From NCBI GenBank assembly GCA_024398665.1, contig JAKSIS010000002.1, positions 4,958 to 68,957 on the forward strand: a stretch of DNA of 64,000 bases. Reading direction: 5' to 3'. Both the position numbers and the translations under genes were made by a program. Positions 539 through 47,388 of this stretch are shown here, one piece after another. The number at the start of each line of letters is the position of its first letter. Position 1 is the stretch's first letter. This DNA is from Bacteroidaceae bacterium. GTDB lineage: Bacteria > Bacteroidota > Bacteroidia > Bacteroidales > Bacteroidaceae. The notes beneath the pieces are model-generated. The model did not search any database and had not been told where the DNA came from. It was given only the letters and a program-made list of their open reading frames with translations.

Positions 539-3526
539 TTACGCCTTTGCGGCAGCAAGTTCTTCCTTTTCCTTCTTGGTCTTCTTCATAACCAGATAAG
601 CTGTAGGAGCGGCAATGAACAGTGATGAGCATGTACCGAATACTACACCCAGAATCATGGCGAATGCGAAACTGCGTATGCTGTCTCCACCAAGGAAGAA
701 TATTGCCAGCAGCACGATAAGAGTAGAAACTGAAGTGTTGATTGTACGTGCCAGAGTGGTGTTCAGTGCATCGTTGAACAACTGTCTGCGCGGACGGTTG
801 GGATACAGATGTGAATATTCGCGGATACGGTCGAATATGACCACCTTATCGTTGATTGAGTAACCGATAGCTGTCAGCACAGCGCCTATGAATGTCTGGT
901 CAACTTCCAGAGAGAACGGCATCCAGCCGTGGCAGATGGCATACATACCTATTATTATAAGGGTATCGACTGTAAGTGCCAGTATTGCACCTACTGAGTA
1001 GGCCACGTTGCGGAAACGGATAAGGATATACAGGAAGATTGCTATCAGGGCAAGTATCACGGAGATGATGGCACCGCGTGTAATGTCCTCGGCAATGGAA
1101 GGACCGACCTTCTGTGATGAGATGATCGATCCGCCTTCACGGTTCTCACGGTCAATGAATGTGGCAAGGTCAAGATTGGAGCTCAGCTTGCCTGCATTCT
1201 TGAGTGATGTGAACAGGAACTCTTCGATTTCAGAATCGATTGTTTCCGATTCTTCAGCTATGCGGTAGTTGGTTGAAATGCGGATTGTCTTGTGGTCAGT
1301 ACCAAGGGCGATGGCCTGTACGTTGTCTTCTGTGATGACACCCTTGAGAATTGACGTCACTTCTTCCGGTTCAACCGGCTGTTCGAACTGTACCACGAAG
1401 TTACGGCCTCCGGTGAAGTCAATGCTCTTGTCCAGACCGCGTATTGCAAGCGCTGCAATGCATATCACAACAATGATTCCGAATACTGTGAATGACTTCT
1501 TTGCAATTTCCATGAACTTCACCTTGGTGTTCTGCATAAGGTTCTTTGAGAACTTGGTGGTGAAGGTGTAGTTCTGCATCTTGCCCTTGCCCAGGAAATG
1601 TTCATAGACGAGACGTGTCAGGAACACTGCGGTGAAGAATGAGCAGATGATACCGATAATCAGGGTCGTTGCGAATCCGCGGATAGGACCTGTACCGAAG
1701 TAGAACAGTATGATACCGGTGATGATTGATGTGAAGTTCGAGTCGAAGATGGCGCTGAAGGCGTTCTTGTAACCGTCAGTCAGGGCCGATGCAACACTCT
1801 TGCCGGAACGGAGCTCTTCCTTGGTGCGCTCATAGATAAGCACGTTGGCATCGACAGCCATACCAAGTGTAAGCACGATACCGGCAATACCTGACATTGT
1901 CAGAGCGGCCTGGAATGAGGTGAGAATACCCAGTGTGAAGAAGAAGTTGCACAGCAGGGCGCCGTTGGCTATCATACCCGGAACGAATCCGTAGATGACG
2001 CACATGTAGATCATCAGAATGATGAATGCTATGATGAATGACATGAAACCCTTCTGGATTGACTCCTGACCGAGTGACGGGCCTACAATGTCTTCCTGGA
2101 CAATCTTGGCGGGAGCCGGCATCTTACCTGACTTCAGGACGTTTGCAAGGTCCTGGGTGTCTTCAACGGTGAATGAGCCGGTGATCTGTGAATGTCCGCC
2201 GGTAATTTCGCCAAGCACGTTCGGTGCGCTGTATACATAACCGTCAAGTACGATGGCAATGCAGCGGTTAACGTTCTGCTTGGTAAGGTTGGCCCAGCGG
2301 CGTGCACCTTCAGTGTTCATAGTCATGCTGACGCAGGGGTTGCCGTACTGGTCAAAGTCTGACTTTGAGTCCGAAACGGCCTCACCTGACAGGGCGGCCT
2401 GACCGTTCCTGCTGGTAACCTTGATGGCATAGAGTTCGAAATACTGTCCAGCAGCGTCCATGGGCTTGACACCCCAGAGGAGCTTCATGTCACGCGGGAG
2501 AAGAGGCTTGACTTCAGGTGAAGCCAGCATCTTGTTGACCTTGGCAGTATCGGAATAGTGTGTGACACCTACTACGCATGTTCCCTGATAACCGGTGGGA
2601 CGGAGAAGTGCGAACAGCGGGTTGGTCTTCATGAGAGCCTCCTTCTGGGCTGCATCGGAAAGGTCTTCTTCGTCAGCGGGGACAAGCTGGCCGGCAAGAT
2701 CATCAGCGGGCTTTTCCTCTTCTGCAACTTCTGCATCGGATTCAGTTTCTTCAGTTTCATTTGAAAGGCCTGACATTGATGCGTGCAGGCGGCTGTCAGC
2801 TGCAGTGAAGATGTCTGAAATCTCTTCAATCTTATATGTCTCCCAGAATTCAAGGTTGGCTGATCCCTGAAGGAGCTTGCGTACTCGTTCGGGTTCCTTG
2901 ACGCCGGGAAGTTCAATCATGATGCGGCCCTGCTTGCCTGACAGTTCCTGGATGTTGGGCTGAGCCACACCGAAACGGTCAATACGGGTACGCAGCACGT
3001 TGAATGAATTTGCTACGGCAGCGTCAACTTCCTCCTTGAGTACTGAAATGACTTCTTCATTGGTGCTCTGGACATGAACGCGTTCCTTAAGCATCGAGGT
3101 TGCGAAAATGGTGCTCAACTTGCCGCCGGGATTCACTTCATTGTATTTCTTGGCGAAGATGTCAACGAAATTCTCCTGACTGCTTATGAATTCCTTCCTT
3201 GCCTGTGACATGGCCTCAGTGAAGGCTGCGTCATTGCTGTTGTTGGCAAGAGCCTTGACCACATCAGGAACTGACACTTCAAGAATGACGTTCATACCGC
3301 CCTTCAGATCAAGGCCGAGACCGATCTGCATTTCACGGCACTCTTTGAACGTGTAGATACCCATCCAGACCTTCTGGTTCATCACAGAGTCAAGATAGGC
3401 CTGTTCGTCCTGACTCTGGGCAGCAGCTTTCTCAATGCTGCGGGTCCTGAATGTAAAGGAGAGATAGAACAGACACACAAGTGTCAGAGCTATCGCGAAA
3501 ATCTTTACAAATCCTTTGTTCTGCAT
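539..3526 (-). CDS. secDF: Protein translocase subunit SecDF (fused)
   Basis: 995-aa ORF with an N-terminal TM segment, a large periplasmic domain and two 6-TM SecD/SecF blocks. The length and fusion are typical of Bacteroidota. Confidence 0.93.
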   Translation of the reverse strand: MQNKGFVKIFAIALTLVCLFYLSFTFRTRSIEKAAAQSQDEQAYLDSVMNQKVWMGIYTFKECREMQIGLGLDLKGGMNVILEVSVPDVVKALANNSNDAAFTEAMSQARKEFISSQENFVDIFAKKYNEVNPGGKLSTIFATSMLKERVHVQSTNEEVISVLKEEVDAAVANSFNVLRTRIDRFGVAQPNIQELSGKQGRIMIELPGVKEPERVRKLLQGSANLEFWETYKIEEISDIFTAADSRLHASMSGLSNETEETESDAEVAEEEKPADDLAGQLVPADEEDLSDAAQKEALMKTNPLFALLRPTGYQGTCVVGVTHYSDTAKVNKMLASPEVKPLLPRDMKLLWGVKPMDAAGQYFELYAIKVTSRNGQAALSGEAVSDSKSDFDQYGNPCVSMTMNTEGARRWANLTKQNVNRCIAIVLDGYVYSAPNVLGEITGGHSQITGSFTVEDTQDLANVLKSGKMPAPAKIVQEDIVGPSLGQESIQKGFMSFIIAFIILMIYMCVIYGFVPGMIANGALLCNFFFTLGILTSFQAALTMSGIAGIVLTLGMAVDANVLIYERTKEELRSGKSVASALTDGYKNAFSAIFDSNFTSIITGIILFYFGTGPIRGFATTLIIGIICSFFTAVFLTRLVYEHFLGKGKMQNYTFTTKFSKNLMQNTKVKFMEIAKKSFTVFGIIVVICIAALAIRGLDKSIDFTGGRNFVVQFEQPVEPEEVTSILKGVITEDNVQAIALGTDHKTIRISTNYRIAEESETIDSEIEEFLFTSLKNAGKLSSNLDLATFIDRENREGGSIISSQKVGPSIAEDITRGAIISVILALIAIFLYILIRFRNVAYSVGAILALTVDTLIIIGMYAICHGWMPFSLEVDQTFIGAVLTAIGYSINDKVVIFDRIREYSHLYPNRPRRQLFNDALNTTLARTINTSVSTLIVLLAIFFLGGDSIRSFAFAMILGVVFGTCSSLFIAAPTAYLVMKKTKKEKEELAAAKA

Positions 3527-3649: not shown

Positions 3650-6751
<3,102 letters not shown>

Positions 6752-28723: not shown

Positions 28724-30052
28724 TCATTGCCGGTGTGCTTCGTCAAACATCCTGAGCCTTTCTTCCAGCAGCGGGAACTGGTCATCACGTATGTTCGATG
28801 AACAGCCGCGTATTCCCTGACGTGTACTGCCTGTTGATTTCAGTGTTATGCCGCTGATTCCGTAGTACAGCAGTTCGTGAAGCAGCTGGCCACCTTCCAT
28901 GGGTGTGCCGTCAGGCAGATTGTAGCTGAAGGTAAAGAAGAAACCGTCGCTGACATCCTCATCAAGGTCCTTGTCATAAGTGATGGAGAACCCGTTACGC
29001 AGCAGGGCGGCCTTGATTTTTTCAGTGCGGCGCGCATATTCGCGTATGTCCTCACGGAACCTGTAGTCACCGTCACATGCAGCCTTGAGCATTGCAGCCA
29101 TGGCAAACTGTACAGAATGGGTTACGCCCGATGACATGGCATACAGCATGTCGTAGGCATAAACGGCACCGAAACGCGAAATGCTGTAGCGTTTCTGCAG
29201 GGTCTCATAGCTGCGAACGAACAGTTTGTCCGATATGCATGCAACGGCAATGCGCTCACCGGCATAGCTGAATATCTTGCTGCCGGAAAGCATCATGATG
29301 TAGTTGTCCGTATAATGTGACACACTTACCTGATATGGTGCCTTGAACGGTACGCCAAGTCCTTCACGACGGAAATCCATGGTCATGTACGCAAGGTCCT
29401 CAAGTATTATTGTGTCATATTTTGTGGCCAGTTCACCGATGGTTTTTATCTCACCTTCTGTCAGACACATCCAGCTGGGGTTATTCGGATTCGAATAGAC
29501 TATGCAGCATATGTTGCCGTTCTTCAGGTAGCTTTCCAACTTTGGAGCCAGCTTTTCGGCTCGGAAGTCAGCCACATCGAATGATGCTGTCTTTACGCCC
29601 ATGACATTTGCCTGCATTTTCTGTACAGGGAAACCGGGATCGATGTAAAGGATTGTATCTTTCTTGGGGTCCAGTTGCGAGCACAGCAGGAATGCTGCAA
29701 ATGTGCCCTGCATAGCTCCGCAGGTGGGTGTGCAGTGGGCGGCCTCAATGTCCGTGTTGATGAATGCCTTGACAAAGCGGGCTGCCTGTTCCTTTAGTTC
29801 GGGTATGCCTTCAATGTTAGGGTATTTTGATGCGACTCCGCGGTCCAGAGCCTCTTTCTGGGCCTTGATACCGACAGCCGACGGCGGTATGCCGGGCACA
29901 CCCATTTCAAAATGGATGAACTCCTGACCGGTAACCTTTTCAGCATTCATTTCGCAGGCAAGCACCTGGCGTATCGATGCCCTGTTCAGGTCAGTTATCT
30001 CGATCTGCCTGAAGTAATCGTCAATGACGTTTGCAGGAATTAGCGTTTTCAT
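28724..30052 (-). CDS. Class I/II PLP-dependent aminotransferase
   Basis: 442 aa. The PLP-lysine motif is LSGSKIFSYAGERI. It lies 6 nt downstream of iorB on the same strand. Confidence 0.85.
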   Translation of the reverse strand: MKTLIPANVIDDYFRQIEITDLNRASIRQVLACEMNAEKVTGQEFIHFEMGVPGIPPSAVGIKAQKEALDRGVASKYPNIEGIPELKEQAARFVKAFINTDIEAAHCTPTCGAMQGTFAAFLLCSQLDPKKDTILYIDPGFPVQKMQANVMGVKTASFDVADFRAEKLAPKLESYLKNGNICCIVYSNPNNPSWMCLTEGEIKTIGELATKYDTIILEDLAYMTMDFRREGLGVPFKAPYQVSVSHYTDNYIMMLSGSKIFSYAGERIAVACISDKLFVRSYETLQKRYSISRFGAVYAYDMLYAMSSGVTHSVQFAMAAMLKAACDGDYRFREDIREYARRTEKIKAALLRNGFSITYDKDLDEDVSDGFFFTFSYNLPDGTPMEGGQLLHELLYYGISGITLKSTGSTRQGIRGCSSNIRDDQFPLLEERLRMFDEAHRQ

Positions 30053-30058
30053 CGGGAT

Positions 30059-30631
30059 TTATTCGCAGCTGCGGCCTATTTCCAGGGCCTTGATGTTCAT
30101 GTCAACTATTGCATCGCCCTTGGCGCCGAAAATGGTACGGACGCTTTCGCAGAGCTTTTCAAAACTTATGCTCTTCAAGGCCTTGGAAGCGGCGCCCAGC
30201 AGTATCATGTTAACGGCCTTGGGCATGCGGTTCTCCTTGCCCAGACTGTCCGTATCAATCAGAATGACGTTATCCAACTGCTTCAGCTCACCTATGACCG
30301 CATCAATGTCCGGATAGTTGCCTATATTGACGAACGGATTCGATGAAGTGATTATCCAGCCGTCAGTTGACAGGTACTGCTTGTAGCGCAGTGCCTCCAT
30401 CGGCTCCATTGCAATTATGATGTCAGCCTGCCCAAGAGCTATCAGGTCGCTTGCTATGGGTTTGTCCGATATGCGCAGATTGGACTGTACGTCACCACCG
30501 CGCTGGCTCATTCCGTGGACTTCGGCCTGCTTTATGTAAAGGTCCTCAGTAAGAGCGGCCTGACCTATGACGGTTGCTATTGAGAGGATACCCTGTCCTC
30601 CAACTCCTGCAAGAATAATGTCTGTCTTCAT
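30059..30631 (-). CDS. iorB: Indolepyruvate:ferredoxin oxidoreductase subunit beta
   Basis: MKTDIILAGVGGQGILS is typical of the OFOR gamma-like subunit. ATGA overlap with the iorA stop. Confidence 0.88.
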   Translation of the reverse strand: MKTDIILAGVGGQGILSIATVIGQAALTEDLYIKQAEVHGMSQRGGDVQSNLRISDKPIASDLIALGQADIIIAMEPMEALRYKQYLSTDGWIITSSNPFVNIGNYPDIDAVIGELKQLDNVILIDTDSLGKENRMPKAVNMILLGAASKALKSISFEKLCESVRTIFGAKGDAIVDMNIKALEIGRSCE

Positions 30632-32235
30632 TTCTGTGCGGCTTTTGCTTTTGCCTTGCGGGCAAGTGTCTGTATGCATTCGCGGCGCGGTATGATTACT
30701 GACAGTCCGCGGTATTCAATCTCTTCACGCAGCGTGCGTGTAATCTCCTCCATGTTCTGCGGCAGGGGAACGACAACCTTCAGGTGCTCAGGGTCAACTC
30801 CGATTCCACGGCATATGGCTTCGAACTTGTTCGTTCCAGCCGAATCCTGACCGCCGGTCATGCCTGTAGTCAGATTGTCGCTTATGATGACTGTAATGGG
30901 AGCGTTGGCATTCACGGCGTCAAGCAGTCCTGTCATGCCGGAATGGGTAAATGTGCTGTCACCTATTATTGCAACTGCCGGGAACACGCCTGCGTCACTG
31001 GCGCCCTTTGCCATGGTTATGCTGGCACCCATGTCAACGGTGCTGTCAAGGGCCTGGAAAGGAGGCAGGGCTCCAAGTGTGTAGCAGCCTATGTCACCGA
31101 ACACTTTTGCGTCCTTGTAGTCTTTCAGCACCAGGTTTATGGCCTCATATACGCTGCGGTGGCCGCAACCCTGACACAGTGCCGGAGGACGTGCCACAAT
31201 GTTTGCAGCAACTTCAGGATGCGGCAGCACAGGTATTCCCAGAGCGGCCTTCACAATGTCAGGATTCAGTTCACCCTGACGCGGAAGCGCACCTGACAGG
31301 CGTCCTGTAATTTCGCAGTCCGATGGAAGTATGCCCTTTATCTGCTCTTCAACAAACGGCTGTCCGTCTTCAATCACAAGTATCCTGTCACACTGTTCGG
31401 CCATTGTGCGTACGGTCTCAGCCGGTATTGGGTACTGTGAAAGTTTCATAACCGGGAAAGGAATGCCATCAGGATAGCATTCTGACAGGTAGTTGTATGC
31501 GTTGCCGCACGCAATGGCACCCATCTTGAATCTTTTGGCATCGGCCTTGAAACTGTTGAACGGCGATTCAACGGCCAGGCGCATTATTTCAGGCTGGCGC
31601 TCCAGCATTGAAGCGTAACGGCGTTTTGCTATTGCAGGGAGCAGCACCCAGTCACGGCTGCCGCTTACCGGATTCAAAGCGTTCTGATCCCGTTTTTCAC
31701 CAAGCGTCACCACGGCACGTGAATGGGCCAGACGGGTTACGGTACGCATCAGAACAGGAAGTTTCAAAGTTTCAGACATGTCATACGCATAAGCCATCAT
31801 ATTGTAGGCTTCCTGCTGTGAAGAAGGTTCCAGTATGGGGAGCAGTGCGAACTTGCCGTAGAAACGCGTGTCCTGTTCATCCTGTGATGAATGCATTGAA
31901 GGGTCATCAGCCACAAGAACGACAATACCACCGTTCACGCCGGTGATTGACGAGTTCACGAACGGGTCTGCGGCCACGTTCATACCTACATGCTTCATGC
32001 AGACCAGGGCGCGTTTTCCGGCAAATGACATGCCGAGCGCGGCTTCCATTGCGGTCTTTTCATTCACGCACCAGCGGTTGTGGATCTTTTCGTCAGGGTT
32101 CCTGCTGCAGTAGCCCTGAATATATTCGGTTATTTCAGTCGAGGGTGTTCCGGGATAGGCGTAGACTCCGCTCAGTCCGGCATCAATTGCACCCTGCGCA
32201 ATGGCTTCATCGCCAAGTAACAGTTTCTTTGCCAT
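30628..32235 (-). CDS. iorA: Indolepyruvate:ferredoxin oxidoreductase subunit alpha
   Basis: 535 aa with pyrimidine-binding and TPP-binding domains (GDSTFTHSG) and a Cys motif LCQGCGH. Confidence 0.9.
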   Translation of the reverse strand: MAKKLLLGDEAIAQGAIDAGLSGVYAYPGTPSTEITEYIQGYCSRNPDEKIHNRWCVNEKTAMEAALGMSFAGKRALVCMKHVGMNVAADPFVNSSITGVNGGIVVLVADDPSMHSSQDEQDTRFYGKFALLPILEPSSQQEAYNMMAYAYDMSETLKLPVLMRTVTRLAHSRAVVTLGEKRDQNALNPVSGSRDWVLLPAIAKRRYASMLERQPEIMRLAVESPFNSFKADAKRFKMGAIACGNAYNYLSECYPDGIPFPVMKLSQYPIPAETVRTMAEQCDRILVIEDGQPFVEEQIKGILPSDCEITGRLSGALPRQGELNPDIVKAALGIPVLPHPEVAANIVARPPALCQGCGHRSVYEAINLVLKDYKDAKVFGDIGCYTLGALPPFQALDSTVDMGASITMAKGASDAGVFPAVAIIGDSTFTHSGMTGLLDAVNANAPITVIISDNLTTGMTGGQDSAGTNKFEAICRGIGVDPEHLKVVVPLPQNMEEITRTLREEIEYRGLSVIIPRRECIQTLARKAKAKAAQK

Positions 32236-32260: not shown

Positions 32261-32268
32261 CAAATATC
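32261..32268 (-). promoter_or_regulatory. Possible internal promoter for iorAB (GATATTTG, 5 of the 6 fixed positions of TAnnTTTG)
   Basis: Plus-strand CAAATATC lies 26 nt upstream of the iorA ATG, just downstream of the internal terminator. Confidence 0.3.
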
Positions 32269-32288
32269 CTAATTTTTCTTCTAAAGTC

Positions 32289-32320
32289 AAAAAGGGAAAC
32301 CGGCTATCAGGCCGGTCCCC
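32289..32320 (-). terminator. Intrinsic terminator between the SSS permease and iorA
   Basis: Minus-strand RNA has arms GGGGACCGGC and GCCGGUUUCCC (10 bp, one bulge) followed by UUUUU. It lies 30 nt after the permease stop. Confidence 0.55.
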
Positions 32321-32351: not shown

Positions 32352-33935
32352 TCAGTCTTTCCTTTCCTCTTCCATAAGAGAGGTCATTGCCCTTACGGTG
32401 ACTGTCTTCTCATAGCAGCCGAACATCTTTTCGACATTCTCCTTGTCATGGACACGGGTGAATGCACTTACTATCGGTACTATCACAAGGCCCATAAGCA
32501 TTGCCAGCACACCGGCATTGATGGGTGATGTGAAGTACGGACTGATGAATGTCTTATGTGTGAAGGTGCAGTACATGCAGCCGCACATTATGAGAATGCC
32601 ACAGATGAAACTTGCCCAAACTGAAGCCCTGGTGGTCTTCTTCCAGTACAGACCCCACAGGAAAGGTGCCAGGAATGCACCTGCCAGTGCGCCCCAGGAA
32701 ATACCCATGAGCTGAGCAATGAAGGTCACGGAACTCTTGGCCTGGATAATGGCCAGGACAGACGAAACTGCAATGAAGAACAGGACCAGCAGTCTGATTG
32801 ACAACAGCTGTGATTTTTCCGACATTTCCTTACCGGACTTGCTTACGGCAGGTTTGATTATGTCAAGTGTCAGTGTCGAGCCCGATGTCAGAACCAGCGA
32901 TGAAAGCGTTGACATTGATGCGGAAAGCACCAGTATTATCACAACGCCTATCATCAGGTCAGGCAGGGTCTGGAGCATTGACGGAACAATGCTGTCGAAT
33001 ATTGGCTTGCCGTTTGCTCCGTATTCTATCACGTCACCGTACAGGCGTCCGAATCCGCCAAGGAAGTAGCAGCCGCCGGCTACAATGATTGCAAAGAATG
33101 TTGAGATGAATGTGCCTTTCTTGATGGCGTTTTCATCGCGGATAGCGTAGAATTTGCCAACCATCTGAGGAAGTCCCCATGTGCCCAGTGAAGTCAGAAG
33201 GACAACTCCAAGCAGATATATGGGTTCAGGTCCGAAGAACGATGTGAAAGCACCGTTAAGGGCCGGAGCCGTCTCGGCAGGAATGGCTGAAAGTTTCTCA
33301 ATTGCTGCGGTGAAACCGCCGTTTCCGTTCAGTACGGCTATGATGACAGCAACAATGCCAACCAGCATGATCATGCCCTGTATGAAGTCATTGATTGCAG
33401 TGGCCATGTATCCGCCCACCAGCACATAAATGCCGGTCAGAACTGCCATTCCCAACACGCACCATGTGTAGTCAATGTTGAATGACATTCCGAACAGGCG
33501 TGACAGACCGTTGTAAAGTGATGCGGTGTAGGGAACAAGGAACACGAACACAATCACCGATGCGGCAACCTTCAGTGCGCCGGAATTGAACCTGGCCCCG
33601 AAAAAGTCAGGCATGGTGGCGCTTTTCAGGTACTGTGTCATAAGGCGTGTGCGGCGGCCCAGCAGCCTCCAGGCCAGCAGTGATCCTATCACGGCATTAC
33701 CTATTCCTATCCATGTCGATGCAATACCGTATTTCCAGCCGAACTGTCCTGCGTAACCTACAAAGATGACGGCCGAAAAATAACTTGTACCGAATGCGAA
33801 AGCTGTCAGCCAGGAACCTACGTTACGGTCTCCCAAAACAAAACCCTGCACATTGCTTGTGCTTTTGTGGCAGTAAACTCCAACGCCTATCATAACGGCG
33901 AAGAACAGTACCAGAATTAAAATCTTCAAAAACAT
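32352..33935 (-). CDS. Sodium:solute symporter (SSS) family permease
   Basis: 527 aa with about 13-14 TM helices and an SSS-type N-terminus. It lies between the ACT gene and iorA. Confidence 0.85.
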   Translation of the reverse strand: MFLKILILVLFFAVMIGVGVYCHKSTSNVQGFVLGDRNVGSWLTAFAFGTSYFSAVIFVGYAGQFGWKYGIASTWIGIGNAVIGSLLAWRLLGRRTRLMTQYLKSATMPDFFGARFNSGALKVAASVIVFVFLVPYTASLYNGLSRLFGMSFNIDYTWCVLGMAVLTGIYVLVGGYMATAINDFIQGMIMLVGIVAVIIAVLNGNGGFTAAIEKLSAIPAETAPALNGAFTSFFGPEPIYLLGVVLLTSLGTWGLPQMVGKFYAIRDENAIKKGTFISTFFAIIVAGGCYFLGGFGRLYGDVIEYGANGKPIFDSIVPSMLQTLPDLMIGVVIILVLSASMSTLSSLVLTSGSTLTLDIIKPAVSKSGKEMSEKSQLLSIRLLVLFFIAVSSVLAIIQAKSSVTFIAQLMGISWGALAGAFLAPFLWGLYWKKTTRASVWASFICGILIMCGCMYCTFTHKTFISPYFTSPINAGVLAMLMGLVIVPIVSAFTRVHDKENVEKMFGCYEKTVTVRAMTSLMEEERKD

Positions 33936-34387: not shown

Positions 34388-35689
34388 TTAATGGTTCTGA
34401 CGCAAATCAACAACTCTCTTGGCCTTGCCGTCCGACTGCGGGATGACACCCTTGCCTACAAGCTTCACCTTTGGCGTGAGCAGGATTTCATCCTTCAGGC
34501 GGCGTGTGATTTCCCTGGTAAGATTCTGCAGCATTGCAAAATCATCAGTAGCCTGCTTGAGTTCGGCTTCAATGGTCATTTCATCATTGTCACCTATAGT
34601 TTCAATGGTGATCAGATAGTCACTGGCAAGTTCGGGGAACTGCATGAGAATCTTTTCGATCTGGATGGGATACGTGTTCACACCCTTGATGATCATCATG
34701 TCATCGCTGCGGCCCTGGAAGCGGTCCAGACGCCTGTGTGTACGTCCGCAGGGACAGTCACCGGGTATGATGCGGGTAAGGTCACGTGTACGGTAGCGGA
34801 ACAGCGGCATTGCCTCACGGTTCAGTGTGGTCAGCACCAGTTCGCCAAGTTCTCCTTCCGGAACGGGTTCCAGTGTCTCAGGATCGAGAATCTCAACAAT
34901 GTAGTTGTCTTCCCAGATATGCATGCCGTTCTGCTCCTGGCATTCTATTGCCACACCGGGGCCGCACATCTCGCTCATTCCGAAATTGTTGTATGCCTTG
35001 GCACCCCAGATTTCCTCAATGCGGCGACGCTGTGCTTCAGAATGCGGTTCGGCACCTATTATAAGAGTCTTCACCGTAGTGTCACGCGGGTTGATGCCTT
35101 CTTCCTCAAATGCAGCGGCCAGACGGGTGGCATATGAAGGGATGCAGTGCAGTGCGGTGGTTCCGAAATCGGTGATGAACTTCACGTGGCGTTTTGAGTT
35201 TCCTGCTCCGGCCGGAACTGTAAGCGCACCCAGACGTTCTGCGGCATACTGGATGCCAAGACCGCCGGTGAACATGCCGTAACCCGACGTATTCTGTATG
35301 ATGTCCGTGGAACGGAGTCCGATGCAGTACATTGAACGTGCCATGGCATCGGCCCATTCGTCCAGATCCTTCTTCGTATGCAGTATGACGGTGGGATTGC
35401 CGGTGGTACCGCTTGATGAATGAAGCCTGACAACCTTGTCAAGACCTACCGATGCTATGCCGAACGGATAGGTGGCACGAAGGTCATTTTTTGTCGTAAA
35501 GGGGAACCTCTTTATGTCCTCCACTGACTTGATGCTCTCAGGAGTAATGCCCAGTTCCTTGAACTTGGGAGCATAGAACTTGCTGCCCATTGCAATTTCA
35601 ACCGTCTTTCTGAGACGTTCGGCCTGCAGCTGCTCAAGCTGCTTGCGTGGCATTGTTTCAATCTCCTCATTCCAGAATTTGCTTTCCAT
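34388..35689 (-). CDS. paaK: Phenylacetate-CoA ligase family (arylacetate--CoA ligase)
   Basis: 433 aa. Has the PaaK-type N-terminus FWNEEIETMPRKQLEQLQAERL and the AMP-binding motif SSSGTTGNPTV. Confidence 0.88.
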   Translation of the reverse strand: MESKFWNEEIETMPRKQLEQLQAERLRKTVEIAMGSKFYAPKFKELGITPESIKSVEDIKRFPFTTKNDLRATYPFGIASVGLDKVVRLHSSSGTTGNPTVILHTKKDLDEWADAMARSMYCIGLRSTDIIQNTSGYGMFTGGLGIQYAAERLGALTVPAGAGNSKRHVKFITDFGTTALHCIPSYATRLAAAFEEEGINPRDTTVKTLIIGAEPHSEAQRRRIEEIWGAKAYNNFGMSEMCGPGVAIECQEQNGMHIWEDNYIVEILDPETLEPVPEGELGELVLTTLNREAMPLFRYRTRDLTRIIPGDCPCGRTHRRLDRFQGRSDDMMIIKGVNTYPIQIEKILMQFPELASDYLITIETIGDNDEMTIEAELKQATDDFAMLQNLTREITRRLKDEILLTPKVKLVGKGVIPQSDGKAKRVVDLRQNH

Positions 35690-35713
35690 TTTATTTTATG
35701 TTTTAGTTGTTGC

Positions 35714-35746
35714 AAAAAAAAGACCCGCCCTTGATGGGGCAGGTCC
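35714..35746 (-). terminator. Attenuator terminator in the paaK leader
   Basis: Minus-strand RNA stem GACCUGCCC (35745-35737) / GGGCGGGUC (35730-35722) has 9 bp. Its one U-G pair would be C-A on the plus strand. Loop is 6 nt, followed by U8 (35721-35714), 24 nt before the paaK ATG. Confidence 0.8.
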
Positions 35747-35791
35747 GTATGCTGTTTCAAATGCGATTCAAAATACACACCTCCTTGCCCC
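35736..35791 (-). promoter_or_regulatory. Candidate antiterminator (region 2 GGGGCAAGG pairs with region 3 CCUGCCCC)
   Basis: Positions 35791-35783 can pair with 35743-35736 (8 bp, one bulged A). This sequesters the 5' arm of the terminator. Region 2 can alternatively pair back into the leader ORF. Confidence 0.55.
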
Positions 35792-35795
35792 ACGG

Positions 35796-35843
35796 TTACG
35801 TGCGGTAATAATAATAGTAATAGGAGGCGCTTACAAATTTCAT
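35796..35843 (-). CDS. Leader peptide MKFVSASYYYYYYRT (six consecutive Tyr codons)
   Basis: Read directly as ATG AAA TTT GTA AGC GCC TCC TAT TAC TAT TAT TAT TAC CGC ACG TAA. It starts about 17 nt after the predicted TSS in an A-rich context, and its stop codon sits in the loop of a small hairpin. Confidence 0.75.
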   Translation of the reverse strand: MKFVSASYYYYYYRT

Positions 35844-35866
35844 ATTCTTATGTCCATTTGACGGTA

Positions 35867-35897
35867 CAAAGGTATACACGAATTTCCTGCCGGCAAA
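35867..35897 (-). promoter_or_regulatory. Promoter of the Tyr-leader/paaK unit (-33 TTTG, 19-nt spacer, -7 TACCTTTG)
   Basis: Plus-strand CAAAGGTA (35867-35874) and CAAA (35894-35897) match the Bacteroides TTTG-N19-21-TAnnTTTG consensus on the minus strand. Confidence 0.6.
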
Positions 35898-35966
35898 TTT
35901 TTTTGCATTTATTTTTACGATAACTGCATATTTGTATTTAAAACTGAATAAATATCGAACAGGTAT

Positions 35967-36710
35967 TCAAAGATTGAGAATACTGTCTGTCAAATGACTT
36001 ATACTTGCGTCATCCCCGTCAAACAATCCTACGTAATAGTACATACCTGTACCAGGTGCCACGGTCTGCCCCAGATAGGCATGGCCGGCTTCACCGTCAG
36101 CTGCATACCGGTCCGCCTCAGGCATAACGATGACAACATTTAGGTCATTAGCGTAGGTCACCTGGAGCACTCTGCCCTGTGAGCTGACAGTTGCAGTGTC
36201 CCCGCATACTGCTCCTGCTACAACATTAAGTCCTTCAAACACCCCGTCCCAATGGTCAATGACCTGGATGAAGGGACTTCCGGCAGTCATGGTTATCTGC
36301 TTGTCCAGGGAAACCTCTGTTCCAAGTATGTCAGTTTTCGGGTAGAAGACCGCCATGACTGCGCGGTCCGGCGAATGCATGAGCAGCTGATACTTCCTGT
36401 CAATCTTTTCAGGGAAGTAGAATCCGCTGGTACCCAACGGCGCCGATCCGCCTACTCCAAGACACATTCCGTCAAAACCTATGGAACTGCCTTCCTCTTC
36501 CTCCCGACCGGCCAGCCAGACATTGAAGCCCATTGATGTCAGGGTCTCCTGCTGCTGCAGGGACATGCTGTAACCGGCCAGGCTGTTCTGAAACGAGAAA
36601 CTGTTCTCCATTTCATCAACCGTTATCTCCCAATCGGCCTTGTTTGTCGCTCTGTTCCTGCAGGAGACAGCAATAACGGCCATTGCAGCCAGCAATAGTG
36701 TTCTTTTCAT
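35967..36710 (-). CDS. Hypothetical lipoprotein
   Basis: Lipobox MKRTLLLAAMAVIAVSC. I recognise no other motif. Confidence 0.6.
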   Translation of the reverse strand: MKRTLLLAAMAVIAVSCRNRATNKADWEITVDEMENSFSFQNSLAGYSMSLQQQETLTSMGFNVWLAGREEEEGSSIGFDGMCLGVGGSAPLGTSGFYFPEKIDRKYQLLMHSPDRAVMAVFYPKTDILGTEVSLDKQITMTAGSPFIQVIDHWDGVFEGLNVVAGAVCGDTATVSSQGRVLQVTYANDLNVVIVMPEADRYAADGEAGHAYLGQTVAPGTGMYYYVGLFDGDDASISHLTDSILNL

Positions 36711-37120
36711 TCCGAATATGCCAATGCGTAAGTTCTAATCTGTTTGAGCATGGACAGCAGTCCGTTGCTGCGCGTAGGTGAAAGGTGTGATGTCAGTCCT
36801 ATCTCATCAATGAAATGGACGTCACTTTCAAGAATTTCAGCCGGAGTATGGTCTGAAAGCGCCCTTATGAGCAATGCTATCAGTCCTTTCGTTATGATTG
36901 CGTCACTGTCCGCCTGAAATTTCAGAAGGCCGCCATCCATGTATGCATGAAGCCATACACGGCTCTGACAGCCGTCAATCAGGTTGTCATCGGTCTTGAA
37001 TGATTCATCCAAAGGAGGCTGTCCGTTTCCAAGATCGATTATATACTGATATTTGTCCATCCAGTCATCGAACTGTCCGAACTCTTCAATGATTTCTTCC
37101 TCTGTTTCCTTAATTGTCAT
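36707..37120 (-). CDS. sufE: SufE-family sulfur acceptor protein
   Basis: 137 aa with the GCQSRVWL active-site Cys motif. Confidence 0.88.
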   Translation of the reverse strand: MTIKETEEEIIEEFGQFDDWMDKYQYIIDLGNGQPPLDESFKTDDNLIDGCQSRVWLHAYMDGGLLKFQADSDAIITKGLIALLIRALSDHTPAEILESDVHFIDEIGLTSHLSPTRSNGLLSMLKQIRTYALAYSE

Positions 37121-38130
37121 TGTTTCTCGTTGTAGAGTACATACAGCAGGGTTTCGCCGACCGCTCCCAGAATGCGGCGGTCTATATGCGCGATATCGTC
37201 CTGTGAAGTATGCCAGGTAGGACCGAAACTGCTGTCTTCCAATCCTGGCAGATATGGGACTATGTCTATTGCGGGTATCCCTGCAATGGTATTTATGAAA
37301 TAATGGTCATCAGTGACGAAGGCTCCGTTCTCAGGAACGAAAAGGGAACCGTATCCCAGCTGTGCGCCGGCGTTCCATACTTTATCAACAGTATTCCTTG
37401 CATACATTACCGAGTAGGTCTCCTGGCTGAAACGTGCTCCCTGTCCGCCTACCATGTCAAGGAGTACGGCATAACGGGCCTTGTATCCTGCCTTGAATGC
37501 GTTCCGTGCCCAGTACTGTGTTCCCAGCCCCCAGTATTCGGAAAGGTGCCTGCCCTTGAAGTCCGGACCGGGTCCCCAGTCCTCGGCATCGAGGAATATG
37601 CAGTCAACGCCTATTTGCGGGGCCTTCAGCTGGAACTGGCGTGCAATCTCAAGAATCACGCCCACACCGCTGGCACCGTCATTCGCACCGTCAACCGGAG
37701 TTTTGTGCTTGCCCGGGTCGGGATCATTATCAGCCCACGGCCTGCTGTCCCAGTGCGAACAGATTATGACACGGACCGGACTGTCCGGATTTATTCTTCC
37801 AATGATGTTGCGGCAGTCCAGCACTGTGTTGTCAAAAGTGGTGGTCTGAAAACTCTGCACTACGGTTTCAGCACCGAACTGTTTCAGTTTTTCAGCCAGC
37901 CATGCGGCACATGCCCTGTGTGCCGGTGTACCAGGAACACGCGGACCGAAATCGGTCTGGGCCTTCACGAAAGCGAATGCGCTGTCTGCGTTGAACGCTG
38001 GTCTTGCAGGTGCGGCCGGCTCCTGAGACGTGCTGCTGACAGCGGCTTTCCTGCCCCCGCCGCATGACAAGAGCAGAGCCCATACGGCCACAATGAACGG
38101 AAGTTTCCTTATCATCTGTTCAGTTTCCAT
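37117..38130 (-). CDS. M28-family metallopeptidase fold, probable glutaminyl-peptide cyclotransferase (lipoprotein)
   Basis: Lipobox LLLSCGG. M28 metal-ligand pattern present (ICSHWDS, DGASG, LDAED). The size (~335 aa) matches Bacteroidetes type II glutaminyl cyclases. Alternative start at 38115. Confidence 0.7.
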
Positions 38131-46536: not shown

Positions 46537-47388
46537 ATGAAGAAGATCAACGTTTTGTTTGCCGGCATGGCTGTCATTCTCATGTCATCATGCGGCGGTG
46601 TTTCCACCGGTAAGGTATCGTTCAACGATGTGCGCGACACTGTTTCATATTCAATGGGTATGGGCCGCGCCGTACGTGCATACAAGCCTCAGCTTGAGGG
46701 ACAGTATGGCATTGATTCTGTCGCAATGAAGTCATTCGTAAAGGGTTTTGCCGATGCCGCCAAGGATCCTGAAAACCTGAGCAAGCTGGCATATGCCATA
46801 GGTTACGAAATAGGTTGTGATGAAATGACCAGTGCCTTTGAAGGACTGAGCGCACAGCTTTTCGGTGCAGAGTCTGGAACCAAGTTCAATAAGGACAACT
46901 ACCTTAAGGGTTTCATTGACGGTATGCTTGAAAACTATGACATCATGACATTTGAAGAAGCCGATGAGACATCGGACCGCCTCTACACATATCTCAGCGA
47001 ACAGCAGTTCGAATCAAACCGCAAGGCCGGTGAAGAGTATCTCGCCAAGAAGGCTCAGGAGGAAGGTGTTGTAAAGACTGAAAGCGGTCTTCTCTACAAG
47101 ATCATCAAGGAAGGTGAAGGTCCCCATCCTACAGAAGAGAATGAAGTTGAGGTGAACTACCGCGGTTCTCTCATCAACGGAACTGTCTTCGACCAGTCCA
47201 AGACTCCCGCACATTTCCGTCTCGGCGGTGTCATTCCCGGATGGACCGAAGGTCTTCAGCTTATGAATGCCGGTGCAAAGTATGAATTCTACATTCCTTA
47301 CGAACTGGCATACGGCGACCGCAACAACGGTCAGATCAAGCCTTACTCAGCACTTGTTTTCGAAGTTGAGCTGATCAGCTTCAAGTAA
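46537..47388 (+). CDS. FKBP-type peptidyl-prolyl cis-trans isomerase lipoprotein (Mip/FklB-like)
   Basis: Lipobox ILMSSCGG and an FKBP core (VIPGWTEGLQLMNAGAKYEFYIPYELAYG). The track ORF begins at an upstream TTG; ATG 46537 is preferred. Confidence 0.88.
   Translation: MKKINVLFAGMAVILMSSCGGVSTGKVSFNDVRDTVSYSMGMGRAVRAYKPQLEGQYGIDSVAMKSFVKGFADAAKDPENLSKLAYAIGYEIGCDEMTSAFEGLSAQLFGAESGTKFNKDNYLKGFIDGMLENYDIMTFEEADETSDRLYTYLSEQQFESNRKAGEEYLAKKAQEEGVVKTESGLLYKIIKEGEGPHPTEENEVEVNYRGSLINGTVFDQSKTPAHFRLGGVIPGWTEGLQLMNAGAKYEFYIPYELAYGDRNNGQIKPYSALVFEVELISFK

Follow-up and report, generated by a model that had tools for sequence, protein, structure and literature searches.

A probable tyrosine-codon leader-peptide attenuator upstream of paaK in rumen and hindgut Bacteroidaceae

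In a 64,000-nucleotide stretch of DNA from a Bacteroidaceae bacterium (contig JAKSIS010000002.1; hereafter, the window), a short leader carrying six consecutive tyrosine codons lies on the minus strand, directly upstream of a paaK-like gene for an aryl-acetate-coenzyme A (CoA) ligase. We conclude that this element is very probably a ribosome-mediated leader-peptide transcription attenuator sensing charged tRNA-Tyr. A preliminary description, made from the letters of the window, had read it as a leader-peptide attenuator, and comparison with related genomes supports that reading. The evidence comes from computation on the anatomy of the element, its conservation, the covariation of its helices, the coding signature of its Tyr run, its spacing and its linkage to downstream genes.

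We read the minus strand of positions 35600-36100, and all coordinates previously given for the promoter, the mini open reading frame (ORF), the Tyr run, the stop codon and the small hairpin match (Table 1). The -7 element of the promoter fits TAnnTTTG, the -7 promoter consensus of Bacteroides and other Bacteroidetes. Left unconstrained, the minimum free energy (MFE) fold of the minus-strand RNA consists of exactly three structures: a 1:2 helix (GCGCCUCCU/AGGAGGUGU) that encloses the Tyr run, a small hairpin whose loop contains the stop codon and whose stem ties up the GGGG of region 2, and an intrinsic terminator (3:4). This fold reaches -49.4 kcal/mol (z = -3.76), and none of 200 shuffled sequences was as stable. 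Region 3, the alternative partner of region 2, overlaps 7 nt of the 5' arm of the terminator and 3 nucleotides of its loop. A run of eight T follows the terminator stem at 35721-35714, leaving 24 nt to the paaK ATG at 35689. Two helices had been drawn too short: the 2:3 pairing exists as proposed, with 10 pairs and one bulged A instead of 8 bp, and the terminator hairpin, correctly placed with its U8 24 nt before paaK, has 10 pairs instead of 9. The plus strand was rejected as the functional strand because it folds worse (-42.4 kcal/mol) and shows C-A mismatches in the terminator, in line with the earlier choice of the minus strand. The mutually exclusive 1:2, 2:3 and 3:4 layout put forward at the outset holds in the folds and in the homologues, with few compensatory changes in 2:3. 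Within the window the leader holds the sole run of at least four TAY codons on either strand.

We scanned relatives of PaaK, taking one genome per species, and obtained 57 loci that belong to uncultured Bacteroidaceae/Bacteroidales of the rumen and of the guts of horses and other herbivores, plus 23 distant deltaproteobacterial and other loci. A Tyr-run mini-ORF and a terminator stand before paaK in 24 of the 56 Bacteroidales loci with upstream sequence; these 24 represent 22 distinct sequences, with PaaK identities of 82-97%. A pattern scan of metagenomes returned at least 120 stretches, nearly all of them chance matches from unrelated environments; among the matches listed, 7 were true. Also among the matches listed, variants were found upstream of paaK (L148, L197 and L181; L numbers denote loci) and directly before stand-alone orthologues, 81-84% identical, of the sodium:solute symporter gene that lies downstream of paaK in the window (L120, the same as L158, and L190). 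Look-ups with the symporter added a further variant, MNLCHTNSYFYYYYYRS, present in L201-204 from many samples, where the upstream neighbour is transcribed divergently. In total the module is known in at least 27 distinct versions from uncultured rumen and hindgut Bacteroidaceae, five further variants being metagenomic. A covariance model built from 26 sequences scored all true instances at 71-131 bits, the window copy reaching 126.9 bits, and found no second copy of the module in the window or in ~1.3 Mb of related loci. Its one match of intermediate score, in L145/L156 (41.5 bits), was discarded as a false positive lying inside a permease coding sequence, in another frame. No leader was seen in the more distant paaK loci (61-80% identity: L049, L052, L053 and L056) or in the deltaproteobacterial loci. 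Judged from these sequences, we would describe a putative family of Tyr-codon attenuators that is well conserved, phylogenetically narrow and patchy. One of its members, L045, carries an insertion of ~200 bp between terminator and paaK (2775-2976), placing the leader 306 nt from paaK. With imperfect inverted repeats at both ends (GTTAAGAAACTGTTTAAATTT... / ...AAATTTAAACAGTTTCTAAAC), this insertion resembles a miniature transposable element.

The leader ORF kept its shape in all 27 variants (ATG start, 13-21 codons and an in-frame stop), and 26 of them hold 4-7 Tyr codons in the run, that of L037 being degenerate. The encoded peptides, among them MKFNVTSYYYYYYRT, MNVRFASAYYYYYYRT, MRVNSYIGYYYYYYRT, MNFSHTYYYYYYRT, MISQQTYSYYCYCYYRT and MKFIKNLYAYYYYYYRTELVG, differ in their N-termini and keep the Tyr run, and they share a conserved C-terminal YYRT/YYRD motif. 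In 26/26 homologues the leader ATG is preceded by a TAnnTTT[G/A] motif whose end lies 18-28 nt away, and in 17/26 a TTTG stands 12-30 nt upstream of that motif. Across homologues, the first two positions of the run's last six codons are nearly invariant, and position 3 varies between T and C only, with minor-allele frequencies of 0.08-0.46 and the GCA codon of L037 as the exception. A and G are otherwise absent from this position, where either would turn TAY into a stop codon. The runs add up to 89 TAT and 71 TAC codons. This three-base periodicity is the pattern expected if selection acts on Tyr codons and not on an RNA motif.

Conservation extends to the helices. The 1:2 helix forms in every homologue and always ends at the first Tyr codon, and it does so with at least nine unrelated complementary pairs of strands (e.g. 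CCUCC/GGAGG, CACACC/GGUGUG, CAUCGGC/GCCGGUG, UACGCUUA/UAAGUGUGUA and AUCAACAGCUAU/AUAGCUGUGUGAU). Column-based alignments bring this helix out of register (64-69% paired; 64% with MAFFT), and we turned instead to per-sequence duplexes with a permutation test and to a model-guided alignment. Cognate 1:2 duplexes averaged -14.8 kcal/mol against -9.6 kcal/mol (standard deviation 0.56) for permuted ones, and 0/20000 permutations reached the cognate value (p<5e-5). Among the 26 sequences 91% pairing is seen in the terminator, where 7 of the 10 pairs show compensatory changes, and the small hairpin is 92.9% paired, with 2 pairs changed on both sides. Taken as a whole, the terminated-state structure is 83.6% paired compared to 37-50% in slid controls and has 15 pairs with double-sided changes, values to be read knowing that the model-guided alignment was fitted to this structure and favours it; its covariation score is 0.338 versus 0.225 in shuffles (0/500). 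The 2:3 antiterminator, which was not used in building any alignment, conserves GUGGGGC/GCCCCAC and is 83-85% paired over its 10 pairs, compared to 43-53% when slid; its mean energy is -17.7 kcal/mol, against -10.0 kcal/mol with shuffled partners. Indirect support for 2:3 comes from the conserved CAC of the terminator loop, since a plain terminator would have no reason to keep it. The stretch linking regions 2 and 3 differs among homologues in both length and sequence, an observation that speaks against a ligand-binding aptamer. The preliminary description had proposed to test whether related genomes conserve a mini-ORF with a Tyr run that drifts synonymously, together with compensatory changes in the 2:3 and 3:4 stems, and the comparison bears this out, with few such changes in 2:3.

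Conservation of the YYRT/YYRD C-terminus would also be expected if the mini-ORF encoded a functional Tyr-rich micropeptide (a membrane peptide, say, or the precursor of a modified peptide) with its own terminator, read-through into paaK being incidental, and gut Bacteroidales have many small-protein genes, which are poorly annotated. However, the codons in question (CGC ACG / CGC GAC) make up one side of the small hairpin, its 5' arm, so that RNA structure accounts for their conservation, and the N-terminal half is not conserved as a peptide while it covaries as RNA with region 2. Moreover, no modifying enzymes are linked to the ORF, and the module is always found between a promoter and paaK or the symporter. 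We therefore give the micropeptide very little credence.

Spacing within the leader agrees with the attenuator. Measured from its first base, the last Tyr codon precedes the GGGG of region 2 by 13-21 nt, and by exactly 16 nt in 15/26 sequences; in 22 sequences the stop codon is upstream of GGGG, by 4-9 nt, and in the other four it falls 4-9 nt past the start of GGGG. A fixed distance between Tyr run and region 2, combined with a wandering stop codon, is what a ribosome-footprint model predicts. To represent the ribosome, nascent transcripts were folded up to the terminator loop with a mask of -15/+12 nt around the A-site codon. When the mask was placed on a Tyr codon, at least 5 bp of the 2:3 helix formed in 26/26 sequences, and in 25/26 this was true for every codon of the run.

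From these data the following mechanism can be proposed. Transcription would start a few bases downstream of TACCTTTG, and a ribosome would load on the 15-codon ORF. If Tyr-tRNA were scarce, the ribosome would stall in the six-codon Tyr run, covering region 1 and melting the small hairpin; the stalled footprint would end ~3-4 nt short of GUGGGGC, so that region 2 would be free as region 3 emerges. The 10-bp antiterminator would then block the terminator, and RNA polymerase would read into paaK-ACT-symporter. If Tyr-tRNA were plentiful, the ribosome would arrive at the stop codon, 7 nt before GGGG (in some relatives it would even read through GGGG), and would mask region 2 there, allowing 3:4 to form and transcription to end at the U tract (35721-35714). 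In the absence of any translation, region 1 should pair first with region 2, and termination would be expected. We infer, in this scheme, that the ORF is translated, that transcription and translation are coupled and that the leader responds to tyrosine.

A similar switch could be thrown by a protein or another trans factor (TRAP-like or PyrR-like) for which the UAY repeats would be the binding site. Triplet repeats in a helix-closed loop do resemble protein-binding attenuators, the regulated operon itself encodes an ACT-domain protein, a small-molecule-sensing fold that might play this part by responding to an aromatic amino acid, and translation of the leader ORF is something that we infer. 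Yet in 27/27 variants an in-frame ATG lies 5-10 codons upstream of the run (typically 6-8) and an in-frame stop is present, variation within the run is strictly of the synonymous T<->C type, the spacing from the last Tyr codon to region 2 fits the footprint of a ribosome, and the stand-alone symporter loci with a leader have no neighbouring ACT gene. A trans factor thus seems very improbable to us.

The preliminary description had itself named a scenario that would undo its reading: the hairpin and U tract might simply be the terminator of the upstream lipoprotein/sufE operon, the Tyr-run ORF being a chance or decaying frame. The element does lie downstream of a co-oriented set of genes (CysS, M28 peptidase, SufE and a DUF4861-like lipoprotein), and we found no strong terminator between the lipoprotein stop at 35967 and the leader promoter. 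But where relatives combine this upstream operon with a leaderless paaK, a terminator is likewise missing at this place, with paaK following 30-70 nt on; the module is also found behind unrelated genes, behind a divergent gene (L201-204) and before the stand-alone symporter; and a promoter motif separates the upstream gene from the leader in 26/26 cases. The coding signature of the ORF speaks against a chance frame. Because the module travels with the downstream gene, tolerates a divergent neighbour and is missing from sufE-bearing relatives, these comparisons exclude the upstream-operon terminator for practical purposes.

Some results, nevertheless, weigh against the attenuator. Regarding its distribution, 31/55 complete close paaK loci have the same gene order without the module. 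In such leaderless loci (PaaK 88-96% identical) only a promoter motif, e.g. TAAATTTGC, is found 30-45 nt before paaK; the leaderless set is L002, L006-L018, L020-L024, L026-L028, L031, L032, L036, L050, L051 and L057, the region upstream of paaK being at ~2900-3000 in each locus. Since close relatives lack the whole module, these ~150 nt must have been lost or gained repeatedly in one clade, and gene content does not differ between leader-bearing and leaderless loci. Two stand-alone symporter orthologues (L205 and L206) have no leader either. Regarding the run, some leaders are degenerate: L037 reads MKGNGYTAYSYCSLT, and others have Phe, His or Cys codons in the run, each one base away from a Tyr codon. 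Covariation of the 2:3 helix is thin, its sequence being highly conserved: three pairs have changed on both sides (the clearest case is GUGUGGA/UCCACAC in L037), a number also reached by 77/500 shuffles of the 26 sequences, and the comparison of cognate with permuted 2:3 partners gave p = 0.05. The folds also have their limits. Placing the mask on the stop codon gave the antiterminator in 0/26 sequences, a near trivial result, region 2 being hidden by the mask in this position. With no ribosome present, the nascent MFE fold shows the antiterminator in 12/26 sequences, so termination without translation would rest on the order of folding (1:2 first) and not on thermodynamics. In addition, the MFE fold of the full-length leader keeps the terminator under every ribosome mask, from which it follows that the switch must be kinetic.

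The leaderless symporter orthologues of L205 (3001-4587) and L206 (3001-4644) are ~82% identical and stand without paaK, with a DUF2490 gene adjacent in both. Looking at the contexts in which it is found, the symporter has evidently moved between genomic surroundings.

Turning to the genes under the leader, paaK is followed by genes for an ACT-domain-pair protein and the symporter, and then by iorA and iorB, for indolepyruvate:ferredoxin oxidoreductase (IOR), and a pyridoxal-phosphate (PLP) aminotransferase (Table 1). The PaaK product scored 459 bits with the NCBIfam PaaK model, which is under its equivalog cut-off. The best family matches of the symporter are in the PutP/PanF branch (195 and 157 bits), compared to 36-64 bits for permeases of the acetate/phenylacetate type. 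Directly after the symporter gene there is a strong terminator-like hairpin, followed by a promoter-like motif before iorA; the symporter-iorA gap of many related loci likewise holds a TACTTTTG or TAATTTTG motif, and in several leader-bearing genomes iorA is not adjacent. For these reasons the attenuated unit is most likely paaK-ACT-SSF symporter, ending at the 32320-32295 hairpin, and iorAB-aminotransferase is probably a functionally linked neighbour with its own promoter. Hence, of the paaK/ior locus initially proposed as the target, the paaK part is retained and the ior part probably is not. The symporter-iorA gap varies among relatives: in L021 (~6366-6498) it is expanded by tandem GAGAATTGA-type units in a long inverted repeat, and in L011 (~6342-6489) it contains an unrelated insert of ~120 nt.

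Table 1. Features of the leader and of the downstream genes in the window
Feature	Position	Strand	Basis or remark
-33-like promoter element, TTTG	35897-35894	-	Sequence; followed by a 19-nt spacer
-7 promoter element, TACCTTTG	35874-35867	-	Sequence; fits the TAnnTTTG consensus
Leader ORF, MKFVSASYYYYYYRT + stop, 15 codons	35843-35796	-	ATG 35843-35841; TAA 35798-35796
Six Tyr codons, TAT TAC TAT TAT TAT TAC (putative sensing codons)	35822-35805	-	Followed by CGC ACG TAA
Region 1, GCGCCUCCU, 5' strand of the 1:2 helix	35830-35822	-	MFE fold; ends at first Tyr codon
1:2 helix, GCGCCUCC(U) with (A)GGAGGUGU	35830-35822 with 35785-35777	-	MFE fold
Small hairpin, CCGCACG / CGUGGGG	35805-35799 / 35794-35788	-	One G.G mismatch; MFE fold
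Region 2, GUGGGGCAAGGAGGUGU	35793-35777	-	3' part pairs with region 1, 5' part with region 3
Region 3, CCUGCCCCAU	35743-35734	-	Antiterminator partner of region 2
2:3 antiterminator, GUGGGGCAAGG with CCUGCCCCAU	35793-35783 with 35743-35734	-	10 pairs, one bulged A
Intrinsic terminator (3:4)	35746-35737 / 35730-35721	-	10 pairs, 7 G-C; 6-nt loop
paaK-like aryl-acetate (phenylacetate)-CoA ligase, predicted first regulated gene	34388-35689	-	Pfam AMP-binding + AMP-binding_C_2
ACT-domain-pair protein, 138 aa	33958-34374	-	Pfam ACT_8; gene call
Sodium:solute symporter, SSF family	32352-33935	-	Family profile matches
Terminator-like hairpin, GGGGACCGGCC...GGCCGGTTTCC + T-rich tail	32320-32295	-	Directly after symporter gene
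TAnnTTTG-like motif, GATATTTG	32263-32290	-	After symporter hairpin, before iorA
iorA, iorB (IOR) + PLP aminotransferase	28724-32235	-	iorA 30628-32235; aminotransferase 28724-30052

What would a bacterium gain from inducing these genes when tyrosine is short? The cluster in the window covers all the steps from an aryl acid to an amino acid: putative uptake, activation by PaaK, reductive carboxylation by IorAB and transamination. Methanococcus maripaludis converts an aryl acid to an aromatic amino acid through IOR (Porat et al., in PMC4162585), and rumen bacteria make Phe from phenylacetate (according to references in PMC7356843). We tentatively propose, as a possibility that falls short of being probable, that tyrosine starvation induces the import and CoA activation of 4-hydroxyphenylacetate, which would then be carboxylated by IOR and transaminated to tyrosine. 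Among aryl acids, 4-hydroxyphenylacetate would most plausibly be the one taken up and activated. A point against this proposal is that PaaK is expected to take several aryl acids, yet the leader would answer to Tyr alone.

Judged by its annotation, this gene content fits a route from aryl acid to tyrosine or the uptake of tyrosine. In the second case the leader would still be a Tyr-sensing attenuator and the symporter would import tyrosine itself, PaaK-ACT serving aryl-acid detoxification or catabolism and being co-regulated with aromatic status. The symporter might do so because it is closer to PutP/PanF than to acetate/phenylacetate-type permeases and is the only gene under the leader in some genomes; iorAB, for its part, seems to have its own promoter. 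On the other hand, ligase, both IOR subunits (alpha and beta) and aminotransferase are all clustered in the window, the logic of attenuation (induction on starvation) fits a supply pathway, and established enzymology has it that an AMP-forming ligase such as PaaK favours the activating direction. On balance, we consider tyrosine import with a catabolic PaaK rather unlikely. If the unit is needed during tyrosine shortage, as the leader suggests, its role would lie in synthesis or salvage more than in catabolism.

Leader-peptide attenuation is textbook knowledge for Trp, Phe, His, Leu, Thr and Ile/Val. Like the enterobacterial leaders (trpL, pheL, hisL, leuL and thrL), the element upstream of paaK has a short ORF in which regulatory codons follow one another in a run, three helices (1:2, 2:3 and 3:4) that exclude one another, a terminator just before the first structural gene and a stop codon placed so that a terminating ribosome would cover region 2. 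It has no sequence relationship to them and differs in several aspects: the amino acid sensed would be Tyr, the Tyr codons are placed not inside region 1 but in the loop that separates it from region 2, the stop codon sits in an additional small hairpin, promoter and translation-initiation context are of the Bacteroidetes type, and in place of a canonical biosynthetic operon the putative targets comprise a CoA ligase, a symporter and an ACT protein. At a permissive E-value, the only leader-type match of Rfam at the locus was Leu_leader, at 19.1 bits against a threshold of 50 (E = 1.5).

Across the 64 kb, which match a 97-kb ENA metagenome contig (ERZ27247193 k141_245196), there are no tRNA genes and no Rfam families at gathering score. 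A sub-threshold match to the ribosomal S15 leader (37067-37185, minus strand; 22.2 bits against a threshold of 39.5, E = 0.046) lies inside coding sequence at the M28 peptidase/sufE junction and is most likely due to chance. A crude leader-peptide screen gave only one other match in the window, a short ORF on the plus strand (47267-47374, MPVQSMNSTFLTNWHTATATTVRSSLTQHLFSKLS) with 4 Thr within 7 residues and a T-run 62 nt downstream, and this is probably chance too.

A precedent for the mechanism exists within the phylum: the Bacteroid-trp motif (RF01692; Weinberg et al. 2010, PMC2864571) is a candidate leader-peptide-type attenuator of Bacteroidetes with Trp codons upstream of trp genes, likewise concerned with an aromatic amino acid. 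Its model gave no match around the locus at E <= 10, nor any at gathering threshold in the window. In Bacteroides thetaiotaomicron, a transcriptome map mentions unvalidated small ORFs 'reminiscent of leader peptides' (PMC7366714). The closest Tyr-containing precedent that we found is the aroR leader of Corynebacterium glutamicum (Phe-Tyr-Phe), which precedes aroF and also concerns attenuation of an aromatic gene; a review reports that Phe limitation acts on it and that Tyr availability has no effect (PMC11802643). It has a single Tyr codon, compared to the 4-7 of the leaders described here. A comparative survey of Actinobacteria describes tyrosine genes elsewhere as regulated by T-boxes and not by attenuators (PMC1262725). 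The leader has no T-box features, the window showed no Rfam match to a T-box or riboswitch, at the locus or outside it, and the segment between regions 2 and 3 is variable. The Tyr T-boxes of Firmicutes (upstream of tyrS, aromatic biosynthesis genes and transporters) bind uncharged tRNA directly, with no ORF or ribosome. They likewise convert scarce or uncharged tRNA-Tyr into a choice of antiterminator over terminator, inducing genes for tyrosine supply that include transporters. The preliminary description knew of no Tyr-specific leader and of no leader peptide controlling paaK; in keeping with this, our literature search, which extended to attenuators of Bacteroides and was incomplete in its coverage, found no description of a Tyr-run leader or a paaK leader. 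Bacteroidota are a dominant phylum of the gut whose promoters and translation initiation are unusual, and to our knowledge very few of their attenuators have been characterised.

It is therefore conceivable, though we would not yet call it probable, that this is the first dedicated tyrosine-codon leader-peptide attenuator and that PaaK-ACT-symporter forms a tyrosine-starvation regulon which imports and activates 4-hydroxyphenylacetate for IOR. For the orphan sodium:solute symporter and the ACT protein linked to paaK, the leader offers a first hypothesis about their substrates. Being only 130 nt long, the module is also a compact candidate for a tyrosine-responsive switch in Bacteroides engineering. 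There is current interest in paaK/IOR of gut Bacteroidales as a source or sink of aryl acids such as phenylacetate, for which indications of direction and timing would be useful. Aryl-acid-dependent synthesis of aromatic amino acids has been known in rumen bacteria since the 1960s. If the proposal is true, it would give this synthesis a genetic and regulatory basis, and what looks like a 'phenylacetate degradation' cluster in rumen and hindgut Bacteroidales would be redefined as a tyrosine-starvation regulon.

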